Source of the DNA: an uncultured Anaerolineales bacterium | Lineage (GTDB): Bacteria > Chloroflexota > Anaerolineae > Anaerolineales > UBA11858 | DNA: 64,000 bases | NCBI GenBank assembly: GCA_964419495.1 | Contig: CAYQQX010000004.1 | Location: forward strand, 5,165-69,164 | Direction: 5' to 3' | Program-made: the position numbers and the translations under genes | Part shown: positions 50,930 to 55,189 of the stretch, one piece after another | How the letters are laid out: the number at the start of each line of letters is the position of its first letter | How positions within the stretch are numbered: position 1 is the stretch's first letter | The notes under the pieces: model-generated | Database searches by the model: none | Told to the model about the DNA's origin: nothing | The model's input: only the letters and a program-made list of their open reading frames with translations

Positions 50930-53900
50930 TCATTCCCCATTGTGGATCTTGATCGTTCCCGCGTTGCCATCAACGGTGATTGTCTGTCCGCTTTGAATGC
51001 GCTTTGTGGCCACACCCGTCCCCATGACAGCCGGGATGCCGAATTCACGGGCCACGATCGAGCCGTGGCTGAGCGGGCCACCAATATCGGTGACAACTGC
51101 AGCTGCCATTGAAAAGAGCGGCGTCCAAGCAGGGGTAGTGGTGTTTGCAACCAGAACATCACCTGGGCGCATCTGATCAAAATCCTCGGGGCCAAGCAGG
51201 ATTCGGGCTGGGGCTGTCACACTGCCAACACTGGTCGGCTCGCCTTTGAGCGTATCTCCTGTCTGCGACTCTCCCGTTTGTGCGATAAAAAGATCTGACT
51301 TGATGCCCATCATTCTTTCTTTGTAAGGTAGCATCGGGGGCGGAGTCTCATCTTTTGCGCGTTGCCAAAAATCCCTGCGTTCGGAAACGTGCCCCGCCAA
51401 TTTATCTACGCCTATGTCACTTTCCAGGTTCGCCACACAAAGATCAATCTCTTCCTTCTCCAGCCAAAAGACATCGTCCCTGGCGGTGATTGCTCCTGCG
51501 GAGACAAATCGATCTCCTAACTCGCGTAGCAGCTGGCGCAATTTGGGGAACGCCAATCCAATTTCTGCGATGGCGTCCTCGCGGACTTCGGCCATTTTTT
51601 GTCCCCAATTGAGCGCAGTGCGGAAGATCCAACCTTTAAGGCCCTTGACACGCCCCAGCATCTCCTGGGAAGTCTGAATTCGGATGGCTTCGTTCTTACG
51701 CTGACGTTCATAGGGGTTGCTGCCTTGGCCGCTGAGATATAGCTTGACCATTTCGAGCATCGGTTCAGGGTGATCAAGGGGTAGGTCATAGGCAAAGTCC
51801 ATTTGATAGATGATGTGACCAAACTGCTTCAGATGTTGATTGAATTTCTTTTGCAGCGCTTCAAATTCTTCGCAGTCGACCTCGGCGGGTGGACTACCAG
51901 CAGCGAGGAGTTTTGCAAGTGTTGTGGTGGGTGTCTGTTGGATATATGTGTTGAGAGCGGCTCTCTCACGGCACCACATGGCCAGATCGTAGAGCGACTT
52001 TTCTGAATGAATGGTGATGTTGTCCCAGCCCATCAAAAGCACGGTAGCGCTGGGGGCACCATCGTTTTGCGCCATTTTTTTGTAAACTCTAGTGAGCAGT
52101 CCTTCTGAACCTGCAGAGGCTCCCATGGTGGCAAACATAATTCCGCATAGATATGTCATCGCTTCGGCCACGATCTCTTGGGCTTGTGCCCAAAGATCGG
52201 CGACAGATAATTCACTGGGAACTATTTTTTCTATCTCTGCCGCATAGGCCTGGTATTCTGGGTGCAGCTCATCTCGCCAAATGGGGACAAGATTCTTGAG
52301 CAGTTTTGGATAGGCGGGCAGCATGCGCGTCAGCAGCCACCAGAAAGCTTTGGGCGGGTACGTTGAGTTCATGTAAGCATACGTGTTGATCTCAGTGAAG
52401 TAATCTTCTGCCAAAACGGGCTCTGAGCCCAACAAGCGTTTCCCGATTACGGGCATTTGTTGCTTGAAGGTGGGAATTCCCAACGTTAAGTAAAGCGGGC
52501 TCAGCGGGTCAGGCATTAAATCGACGATGCTGGCCCGCACGTAAGTGCCCTTAGGAGTAGGGGGTGCCCATTCGATGGCAGGGGCTTGGTCAGAATCCGG
52601 GGACGAGTCTGGGACGTCCAGCAGCACCGTTCCGTTGGTACCGTCGACAGTAATGGTCTGTCCATCCTGGATGCGCTTGGTTCCCACGCCTGAGCCCATC
52701 ACGGCGGGGATGCCGTATTCGCGCGCCACAATCGAGCCGTGGCTGAGCGGTCCGCCAACATCCGTGACCACCGCGGATGCCATGGCAAAGAGCGGCGTCC
52801 AGGCAGGCGTAGTCGTGGCCGCGACCAGCACATTGCCAGGTTTCATCTTGCCAAAGTCGGCGGGGCTGAGCAGTACACTGGCAGGCGCTGTCACAATGCC
52901 GGCACTCGTCGCCATACCGCTGAGAGTATCGCCCGCTTGTTCCTCGTCGGAGCCATGCACAAAGTGATCGGTTTTCATCCCTTTGACCCTTTTCTTCTTA
53001 GGGATGATGGGCGGCGGGGGCGAGTGGCTTACTCTTCCCGAAAATGCTTTGCGTGAATCCACACGACCCGAGAGACTCTCGGCGGTATTCCCGCTTTCAA
53101 GTTGCGCCAAGCTACCTTCAATTTCATCTTTCTCCAACCAGAAGATATCGTCTTTGTGTTGGACCCCGCCTGCATCGGCCAGACGCTGTCCCAGTTCGAG
53201 CAGCATGGCTCTCAATTGGGGATACCCGAGCCCGAGGTAGGCCAGGGCGTCATCGCGTGCTTCGGCGTTCGATTGGGCATAGTTGAGGGCCTTGGTAAAT
53301 GCCCACAGCCTGAAGCCTTTCAGACGCTGGAGTATGGCTTCCGTAGTCTCGACGCGCTTTGCTTCGCTGTTCTTCTGGCGCTGGTGTGGATCAGTTCCCT
53401 CACCGCGCAGGTACATCTTGATTATTTCCAGCATTGGCTCGGGATGTTCCAGCGGCAGCGGTTCGGCAAAGTCCAACGAGTAAATGATGTATCCATAGCG
53501 ATCCAAGTGAGATTGGAACCGGGAATCAAACTCGTCCCGTTGATCGATATCATCTCTCGAAGATCGTTGGGCCAATTCCTCTGTGGATGTCTCTAGAATA
53601 TGTCTGGCTAATTCATCGTGTTCTTTGATCCACATTGCCAGATCGAAAAGTGATTTTTCGGCCTTGACCGGGACGTTGTCGTAACCCATTAACAAAGTTG
53701 CTGCGGGCGGGTCTCCCTCACCCTGGGCCATTTTTTCGTAAACGCTTGTTAGAATGCCCTCAGAGCCGGCTGAATTTTTCATGGTGGAGTAGCGCAGCCC
53801 AGCCAGGTAATACATGGCCGCATCCAGAATTTCTTGCACATCTGTCCAAATTTCGTTTGAACTCATTTCGCCAGCCACTTTGTCTTTGTAAGCGGCGATC

Positions 53901-55189
53901 TTCTCTTGATATTCGGGCAGCATTTCATCTCGCCACATGGGAAGCAGGCGCATGATGCGCATAGTTGAGGGCAGCAGCCCGGTAAAGATCCAACGCACAG
54001 CTTCCGTGGGCACAGTTGTATTCATGTAGGCATAGCCGTTGATGGCCGTGAAATAATCCTTAGCAAAGGCCGGCTCGGAGCCCGTAATGCGCTCCGTCAT
54101 GGGGTAGGTTTGCTCAATCAATGCTGGCAGCCCTAAGGAAGCAAATAAAGGGCTCAACGGATCGGGCATCAGGTCGACGGCGCTGGTGCGCAGATAAACG
54201 CCCTTTGGATCAGGCGGCGACCAATCCAGGGGCGGATCGGGCAAAGCGGTTACCGGGCGCGCCTGCACGATGGCGAATTCGCCATCGGTCAGTGTCCACT
54301 CGATGTCCATAGGTATGCCATAAATTATTTCGATTTGATTTCCCAATTCTGTCAACTCAGCCGCCTGTTCATCGCTGAGGGCGGGGATATTTTGCAGATG
54401 TTCGGGAACGGGCTGTGTCTCAATACCGGAGTCTGTGGGCGCGGTTTGGATGCGTTTGGGGGCTAGCTCGCGGTTGATCACTGCACCCGAAGTTTTTTCT
54501 ACCGTGAAGGTGTCTGGCGTGACCTGACCTCCCACAATGGCTTCACCTAATCCCCAGGCGGCGTTGATCACGGCTTCGGCGCGCTGCCCGTTGAGCGGGT
54601 TGGCGGTGAACATGATCCCGGCTACCTCGGCGGGGATCATCGACTGCACAACCACGGCTAAGGCCACACCTTCAGACTCAATTTCTTGCCGCATGCGGTA
54701 GCCGATGGCGCGCCCTGTCCATAGCGAGGCCCAGCACTTTCTGACCGCCTCCAGAACTGCTTCTGGGCCGCGGACATTCAGGTAGGTTTCCTGCTGACCG
54801 GCAAAGGATGCCTCGGGTAAGTCTTCGGCAGTAGCCGACGAACGCACCGCCACAGCAGGGGAGTCAGTGCTGATTTGCGCATAGCCATCAAGGATGGCAT
54901 CTGCCAGGGATGGGGAAATCTCTCCAGCCAAGAACAGCTCATGGATTTCTTGAGATGCCGTCTCCAATGTTTGGGGGCTGGATAGATCTATGGGCGCAAG
55001 CGCACGCCGAATTCCAGGTTGCAGTTTGTTTTCTTTCACAAACAAGCGGTAAGCGTCTGTGGTGATGTGAAATCCGCCCGGAACCGGTAATCCGCCTCGG
55101 ATCAAGCGGGCCAGGGAAGCTCCTTTACCACCGACTGTTTCCAGCGTGGCTGCGGCGTTATCGAGGGGCAGTGTGTATTGATTAATCAT
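50930..55189 (-). CDS. Giant PEP-utilising (PEP synthase / rifampicin-phosphotransferase-like) enzyme: ATP-grasp head + two tandem [central + His-swivel] modules
   Basis: Start at M18 of the track ORF, behind GGAGA. PPDK_N motifs [10 protein letters not shown]...[13 protein letters not shown]. Two swivel domains carry [19 protein letters not shown] and [19 protein letters not shown]. The two ~550-aa units align end to end. Confidence 0.85.
   Translation of the reverse strand: [1419 protein letters not shown]

Follow-up and report, generated by a model that had tools for sequence, protein, structure and literature searches.

A two-module rifampin phosphotransferase-like dikinase with a single ATP-grasp head encoded in an Anaerolineales genome

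PPDK, phosphoenolpyruvate (PEP) synthase and rifampin phosphotransferase (Rph) are the textbook cases of a swivelling mechanism, in which one phosphocarrier shuttles between two active sites. Here we describe a gene from an uncultured Anaerolineales bacterium that encodes a member of this superfamily with one ATP-grasp nucleotide-binding head followed by two carrier-bearing units (head–unit–unit, H-U-U). The gene occupies positions 50930..55189, on the minus strand, of a 64,000-nucleotide (nt) stretch of contig CAYQQX010000004.1 (this whole stretch is hereafter referred to as the window). It is a single unbroken open reading frame (ORF) of 1,419 amino acids, which starts with an ATG at 55189 and ends with a stop codon at 50930-50932. 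A GGAG Shine–Dalgarno sequence lies 8 nt 5′ of the ATG, and homologous proteins start at the same methionine, with an 'MxxYxLPL' N terminus. The homologs do not use the alternative upstream start, the TTG at 55240.

The domain boundaries follow from the ORF, Pfam matches and structure prediction, and all coordinates below are on the minus strand. The head (residues 1 to 321; 54227..55189) is an ATP-grasp domain by Pfam, by Foldseek comparison and by an AlphaFold2 (AF2) model, in which the predicted local distance difference test (pLDDT) score exceeds 90 over most of the domain. In unit 1, the substrate-binding domain (Rph_4th type; residues 322 to 725; 53015..54226) contains an R645–D646 pair, and the phosphohistidine swivel (residues 758 to 857; 52619..52918) carries H817 (codon 52739-52741). 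In unit 2, the substrate-binding domain (residues 873 to 1283; 51341..52573) contains an R1203–E1204 pair, and the swivel (residues 1316 to 1415; 50945..51244) carries H1375 (codon 51065-51067). Within each module, a linker of ~30 residues tethers the swivel to the substrate-binding domain, and the two units are joined by a flexible linker (residues 858 to 872; 52574..52618), for which both AF2 models give pLDDT values below 50. The inter-unit linkers in the family have a median length of 17 residues and are rich in E, P, A and T. A Pfam search matched PPDK_N (PF01326) to residues 17 to 316, with 344 bits against a gathering cut-off of 27, and PEP-utilizers (PF00391) twice, with 164 bits in total. 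The precomputed Pfam annotation of an identical protein gives the order PPDK_N, Rph_4th (PF27448), PEP-utilizers, Rph_4th and PEP-utilizers. No match to the PEP/pyruvate TIM barrel (PF02896) was found in the Pfam search of the window protein, whose C terminus is a swivel.

A BLAST search of the whole protein against itself returned the identity match only, and we therefore compared the units after splitting the protein at its two 'W-x-P-P-x-P-K-G' motifs, which set the unit boundaries. Unit 1 (residues 322 to 872) and unit 2 (residues 873 to 1419) are 52% identical over 541 residues (600 bits, 7 gaps), a similarity far above chance. At the DNA level they are 60% identical, with 39% identity at third codon positions and a longest identical run of 20 nt. 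The resemblance is unevenly distributed, the substrate-binding domains being 48% identical and the swivels 74%. Across the family, sampled as the 120 best clusters (240 units) from a 5.8-billion-protein collection, the units paired within a protein have substrate-binding domains that are on average 36% identical (27–52%) and swivels that are on average 74% identical (54–85%).

Several lines of evidence show that this gene is genuine. The identical protein is present on a separate 15.4-kb contig in ENA, and a full-length ortholog, which is 83% identical and of the same length without insertions or deletions relative to the window protein, is found on 7 contigs from other samples; a second member of the ortholog's cluster occurs on 17 contigs. 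Comparison of the window gene with this ortholog yielded ratios of non-synonymous to synonymous substitution (dN/dS) of 0.14 for the head, 0.12 for unit 1 and 0.11 for unit 2, with values of 0.06–0.08 in the two swivels (0.075 in that of unit 1), and both units are thus under purifying selection (dN/dS about 0.11). An origin of the tandem layout as an assembly chimera, a collapsed repeat or two genes fused by a sequencing error has a negligible probability in our view. With 60% DNA identity and no identical run longer than 20 nt, the units are not a collapsed repeat, the same protein and its equal-length ortholog recur on many independent contigs, and 112 of the 120 nearest clusters share the head–unit–unit layout; an artefact is ruled out as far as assemblies can show. 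The original prediction, which was made from the letters of the window, had described one ATP-grasp head followed by two complete modules that align over their whole length and both keep the catalytic histidine, forming an old and maintained pair rather than an assembly collapse. These claims are borne out by the Pfam order and the unit alignment above, by saturated third codon positions, by the dN/dS of ~0.11 per unit and by the agreement of independent assemblies, and the motifs it quoted are all present in the translation.

The closest characterized protein is Rph. In a phmmer search, the Listeria monocytogenes enzyme (Rph-Lm) was the nearest solved protein (E = 1.5e-89; identity ~26%), and a profile of single-unit homologs aligned to Rph-Lm residues 2 to 865 (E = 5.8e-179). 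We modelled the head and unit 1 (residues 1 to 872) with AF2 on a clean alignment of single-unit homologs, obtaining a mean pLDDT of 93.1 and a predicted TM (pTM) score of 0.87. The best Foldseek match of this model in the PDB is Rph-Lm (5HV1; E = 1.3e-44, TM 0.68, ~900 columns), whereas the TM score against PPDK is only 0.23; the head matches the ATP-binding domain of Rph and HpeI. A model of units 1 and 2 together, built on a MAFFT alignment that was ragged at the second unit or the C terminus (truncated queries being mixed with full-length two-unit homologs), gave a pLDDT of 91.4 and a pTM of 0.59, with a disordered linker, and among solved structures Rph was its sole match. The well-folded units, the linker pLDDT below 50 and the pTM of 0.59 indicate that the units are arranged like beads on a flexible string.

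Rph (PDB 5HV1, 5FBS; NF041857) thus provides both the best sequence match and the best fold match, and the window protein shares its three-domain fold, in the order ATP-grasp domain, helical substrate-binding domain and C-terminal histidine swivel. The two proteins differ in that Rph has one substrate-binding and swivel module per head and the window protein has two, in their low overall identity, and in genomic context, the window gene being part of a tetR/MFS cassette in Anaerolineae. Scores against the NCBIfam models were 534 for Rph (NF041857; cut-off 999), 414 for NF000283 (cut-off 1700), 549 for PigC (NF052631; cut-off 1300), 515 for RedH (NF052632; cut-off 1350), 509 for PEP synthase (TIGR01418; cut-off 739.75), 81.5 for PPDK (TIGR01828; cut-off 843), and 243.8 and 233 for the PRK08296-type models NF006153 and NF006151 (cut-offs 578 and 693). 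PigC, HapC and RedH have the same ABD-SBD-CSD architecture, with the catalytic histidine in a C-terminal swivel (PMC13534948), but contain a single module, unlike the window protein, and prodiginine genes do not occur near the window gene. One swivel per head is the rule in Rph, PigC and HapC, as the original prediction had stated of characterized relatives (PMC4844700, PMC13534948). PEP synthase and PPDK share a homologous ATP-grasp head, a phosphohistidine swivel and the swivelling mechanism, but differ in domain order and in their TIM barrel, the domain that is missing here. On the basis of an Rph fold, the missing TIM barrel and a score below cut-off for every NCBIfam equivalog, we assign the window protein to the Rph/PigC structural branch of the PEP-utilizing superfamily, outside every characterized family. 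The name 'PEP-utilising enzyme' in the original prediction accordingly holds at the superfamily level and fails below it, as the protein lacks a PEP/pyruvate TIM barrel and has the fold of a rifampin phosphotransferase.

The residues required for catalysis are conserved in the head and, with one substitution, in both units. In Rph, K22, R117, T136, H825, R666 and E667 are functionally important (Stogios et al.; PMC4844700). The head residues K22, R116 and T135 correspond to Rph K22, R117 and T136, and D295, E297, Q309 and R311 of the head are invariant in the family. H817 and H1375, which are equivalent to Rph H825, lie within an invariant G-G-x-L-S-H motif. The equivalents of Rph R666–E667 are R645–D646 in unit 1 and R1203–E1204 in unit 2, such that the glutamate is retained in unit 2 and replaced by aspartate in unit 1. 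Rph Q337 aligns with an aspartate in the window protein, and T523 is not clearly conserved, by alignment only. Among the 120 homologs, no variation was seen in any of the 240 units at the catalytic histidine, at the serine before it, at the arginine of the Arg–Glu pair or across most of the swivel motif, and none of the 240 appears degenerate.

Far from being a singular oddity, the window protein belongs to a large family. The 120 best clusters, whose source names are Anaerolineales, Anaerolineae or Chloroflexota metagenome-assembled genomes (MAGs), comprise 112 proteins with a head and two units, 4 with a head and three units (P0003, P0004, P0005 and P0015; ~1,960 residues) and 4 with one unit. 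By sequence identity the units sort into five types, A to E, with 60–75% identity within a type and 32–46% between types. The layout A-B is the most frequent (62 proteins), followed by C-A (38), A-C (5), D-A (4), A alone (4), A-A (3, including the window protein), A-C-D (2), A-C-B (1) and E-A-B (1); this sample is skewed towards type A because the query is itself A-A. In a library clustered at 50% identity, the relatives are mostly single-unit proteins of ~860 residues or headless, unit-only proteins of ~550 residues, and multi-unit proteins turn up repeatedly, one of them in an Actinobacteria MAG. A headless double unit of 1,123 residues (P0165) also exists. At one locus (L055, 8001-13895), an 875-residue single-unit gene and a 1,964-residue three-unit gene stand in tandem behind one tetR. 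More distantly, P0203 (2,309 residues), P0205 (1,832 residues; L057) and P0232 (2,648 residues; L056) carry four, five and six PEP-utilizers domains, respectively, with one PPDK_N each, which is partial in P0205 and located mid-protein in P0203; P0205 has archaeal-looking neighbours (CDC48, TrmB and a TFIIS-type zinc ribbon).

Databases name the family 'pyruvate, water dikinase', 'rifampicin phosphotransferase', 'PEP/pyruvate-binding domain-containing protein' or 'PEP synthase', names that are generic or wrong and misleading for multi-unit proteins. Our search of the literature (open-access PMC and bioRxiv) turned up no account of Rph-like proteins with tandem units or several swivels, and the head–unit–unit architecture is visible in public domain annotation yet appears uncharacterized. 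The original prediction had considered that the layout might prove common and functionally understood. Common it is, given the 112 head–unit–unit clusters, the three-unit forms and the proteins with up to six swivels; functionally understood it is not.

A further element of the original prediction, that the gene arose by internal duplication, is contradicted by comparison with relatives, as the two units do not form a sister pair. P0067, a single-unit protein of 898 residues, has as its only unit an ortholog of unit 2, at 83% identity, and unit 1 clusters with the P0046 unit and a small number of others. Identity to many A units elsewhere is 59–64% for each unit, compared with 52% to its partner. 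P0067 is encoded in a Black Sea Anaerolineales MAG (locus L002), the nearest genome found, which is syntenic with the window and shares with it a sensor kinase, a response regulator, a reductive dehalogenase, the TetR, the kinase, a membrane protein and a headless unit (64–89% protein identity). The nucleotide alignment of the window and L002 shows a clean presence/absence of ~1.65 kb that corresponds exactly to unit 1. This clean difference, together with the non-chimeric unit of P0067, indicates that unit 1 is an old paralogous module, inserted in the window lineage or lost from the relative, and not a recent in situ duplication. Unequal crossing-over was rejected as the source of single-unit P0067, the unit of which is uniformly unit-2-like, and the neighbouring headless units, at an identity of only ~30%, were dismissed as ancestors of the fused ones. 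The G+C content at third codon positions (GC3) gave no clear signal of a foreign origin of unit 1. The TetR (64%) and the head (70%) are less similar to their L002 counterparts than the flanking genes are; we do not claim recombination of these parts, because the head is also faster-evolving between P0001 and P0002.

Units without a head of their own recur beside head-bearing kinase genes. The L002 operon consists of tetR, a head–unit gene, the membrane protein gene, a headless unit, an SDR, an alpha/beta-hydrolase, a second headless unit and an MFS gene, so that a single head is present alongside three units with swivels, of which two are headless. In L001, a head–unit–unit gene is followed by a headless unit. 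The headless genes in these operons encode proteins of 534–545 residues (L002, 14464-16095 and 18030-19634; L001, 13754-15391; L005, 8373-9986). They resemble the swivel-bearing component of PpsAB, CreHI and HpeHI, enzymes of the same superfamily in which the ATP-grasp and swivel-bearing components are separate proteins, both needed for activity, and the former charges the latter, which also carries the substrate-binding domain (PMC12167813). In these enzymes head and swivel occur 1:1 on separate chains, whereas in the window protein the ratio is 1:2 and all parts are fused in one ORF. The separate subunits of HpeHI, CreHI and PpsAB provide a precedent that a head can charge a swivel that is not fused to it. 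In the window, such a headless unit is represented only by a pseudogene (substrate-binding domain and swivel, with no ATP-grasp domain; 48136..49579, minus strand).

The window protein therefore combines a single intact ATP site with two modules that are both intact and under selection and that each comprise a substrate-binding domain, a linker and a swivel. In Rph, the swivel histidine carries the β-phosphate of ATP from the ATP-grasp domain to the substrate-binding domain, yielding AMP, Pi and the phosphorylated substrate (PMC4844700), and PigC and HapC follow the same three-domain cycle (PMC13534948). We consider it probable, albeit well short of certain, that this protein acts as a modular dikinase for small molecules within the Rph/PigC branch, with both swivels charged by the one head and each of them phosphorylating in the pocket of its own module. 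The chemistry is presumed, by analogy with Rph, to convert ATP and an acceptor to AMP, Pi and the phosphorylated acceptor. Swivels 1 and 2 would dock in turn on the single ATP-binding head, where H817 or H1375 would take the β-phosphate of ATP, freeing AMP and Pi, and the charged swivel would return to its own substrate-binding domain and phosphorylate a small-molecule hydroxyl with the aid of the Arg–Glu(Asp) pair. Swivel 1 is tethered on both sides, as is the central (swivel) domain of PPDK, and swivel 2 could reach the head in cis via the flexible linker, or between the subunits of an oligomer. That both modules turn over we infer from their sequences. Charging of both swivels at a single head would explain why they are ~74% identical within the protein. 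The pockets have diverged (48%) and the swivels have not (74%), which points to a pair of distinct acceptors, or to two sites on the same acceptor, and most likely the enzyme would handle these with its single ATP-loading domain.

The reach of the distal swivel is where a different route of phosphoryl transfer must be weighed. In a serial phosphorelay, the head would charge swivel 1 only, and a His-to-His transfer would pass the phosphoryl group to swivel 2, which would serve pocket 2. Such a relay would settle the reach problem, would suit the proteins with up to six swivels, and has a parallel in the phosphotransferase system, in which a homologous swivel domain of enzyme I passes its phosphoryl group to a histidine of HPr. 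However, we know of no transfer from swivel to swivel, every unit keeps a full substrate-binding domain with its Arg–Glu pair, the order of units is interchangeable, and the presence of headless units in operons with a head-bearing kinase implies that a head charges them directly, in trans. We regard a relay as very improbable.

The substitution in unit 1 bears on whether both modules are catalytic. Rph E667 hydrogen-bonds the catalytic histidine (PMC4844700), and among the 240 units only the window protein and its 83%-identical full-length ortholog have aspartate at this position, 238 having glutamate. Together with the presence of the unit 2 ortholog alone in the syntenic relative L002, this could mean that one module is catalytic and the other, perhaps unit 1, has a regulatory, decoy or structural role. 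Yet unit 1 keeps the catalytic histidine, the full swivel motif and the invariant arginine; its dN/dS is as low as that of unit 2, overall and in the swivel; the catalytic histidine is invariant in the units at any position; and the Glu-to-Asp change is conservative and common to both orthologs. We consider a single catalytic module improbable, if less so than a relay.

Against the proposal that one head charges two active modules stand several observations. D646 (codon 53252-53254) could weaken or alter the chemistry of unit 1. Swivel 2 is ~550 residues from the head, and AF2 does not give a confident inter-unit geometry. The NCBIfam scores fall below the cut-offs for Rph, PigC and PEP synthase, and multi-unit members are known only from sequence and predicted structure. 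Finally, the SDR, hydrolase, second headless unit and MFS genes of the L002 operon are missing in the window, where the remaining headless unit is a pseudogene, and the cassette in the window genome may be decaying.

The neighbouring genes provide hints at the substrate. A TetR-family regulator (TetR_N and TetR_C_24 by Pfam; 55249..55842, minus strand) lies 57 bp 5′ of the kinase gene on the same strand, and a perfect palindrome, CGACC-AAC-GGTCG, at ~55856-55868, just 5′ of the tetR ATG at 55842, is a candidate TetR operator. Orthologs of this TetR stand upstream of the kinase in 8 of the 10 other family loci, directly in seven; in L054, two methyltransferase genes intervene. An MFS transporter ortholog follows the kinase directly in four loci and closes the operon in L002. 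Such a tetR/MFS cassette suggests that the substrate is a small and hydrophobic compound of xenobiotic, antibiotic-like or aromatic nature. The mphA–mrx–mphR resistance operons follow the same cassette logic, combining an antibiotic kinase, an MFS-like membrane protein and a TetR repressor; the kinase fold of mphA, an APH-type protein-kinase fold, is unrelated, and the likeness is organizational only. MarK (PMC12624787) was considered as a comparator and dropped as not useful.

On the other side of tetR, a divergent block on the plus strand (56053-63332) encodes a HAMP/GAF sensor histidine kinase, a LuxR-type response regulator, a reductive dehalogenase (TIGR02486; 289 bits, cut-off 160), a multihaem cytochrome c and TatC. 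The block is syntenic in L002 and L051 and is absent near the family members in L053, L054 and L055. The adjoining dehalogenase suggests phenolic products as substrates, but its conservation is confined to the closest relatives. It also raises the alternative of a tandem pathway enzyme, the modules of which would act successively on one substrate or in one pathway rather than on two unrelated xenobiotics, for instance in a double phosphorylation, in an activation for condensation as in PigC, or in an activation, in the manner of phenylphosphate synthase, of phenols released by the neighbouring reductive dehalogenase. The fixed pairings A-B (62 proteins) and C-A (38 proteins) recur over many genomes, as expected of cooperating modules; the best-scoring NCBIfam models include those of PigC and RedH; the dehalogenase, sensor kinase and response regulator lie just upstream in the window, L002 and L051; and phenol-type kinases exist in the superfamily (PMC12167813). 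However, the dehalogenase neighbourhood is limited to close relatives, the partners across the family are TetR and MFS proteins, and carboxylase or prodiginine-type genes were not seen nearby. In addition, the unit order varies, with both A-C and C-A in use, and the PigC and PRK08296 scores are far under their cut-offs. We judge a tandem pathway enzyme to be unlikely, although it is the alternative that we take most seriously.

Beyond this one protein, the combination of fused and headless units raises the possibility of a combinatorial phosphoryl-distribution platform, in which one ATP-grasp loader charges several interchangeable modules that are fused in various orders and numbers or supplied as headless proteins from the operon. 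We put this forward tentatively, as an idea that is plausible but that we do not yet favour. If it were true, one TetR-controlled locus would provide multi-substrate phosphorylation of small molecules, antibiotics or xenobiotics, in Anaerolineae and other uncultured lineages, and the swivelling mechanism, in which a single carrier moves between two sites, would extend to multiple carriers that draw on a common loading site. In the window protein, two carriers apparently depend on a single ATP site, as do three to six in relatives, each carrier having an acceptor pocket of its own. If confirmed, this arrangement would pose the question of the way in which distal carriers gain access to the loading site, be it in cis, inside an oligomer or through a relay, and the shuffled modules would form a natural set for the study and engineering of acceptor specificity. 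As the Rph family is an antibiotic-resistance family, its large set of unannotated multi-pocket relatives beside TetR and MFS genes in environmental Chloroflexota is relevant to resistance surveys.

The remaining genes of the window cassette lie downstream of the kinase. A 429-residue polytopic membrane protein (49604..50893, minus strand) is encoded 36 bp downstream of the kinase gene and is 80% identical to its L002 counterpart; it matched no Pfam or NCBIfam family, permissive thresholds included. The headless pseudogene that follows was delineated against the intact 543-residue L002 ortholog, to which it is 75–86% identical, and contains an in-frame stop at the W25 position, a frameshift near residue 117 and a deletion of ~60 residues; its swivel part is intact and is called as a 356-residue ORF. 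On the contigs of P0002 (L051 and L052), the membrane protein gene is truncated and the headless unit is gone. In L002 the headless unit is followed by an SDR gene, of which the window retains only a 29-residue stub at 48053-48139. Synteny with L002 ends after this stub, and the next region (42104-48000) encodes a DinB_2 protein, a metallo-beta-lactamase-fold protein, a leucine-rich repeat (LRR) protein and a phage-type integrase (42104-43024).

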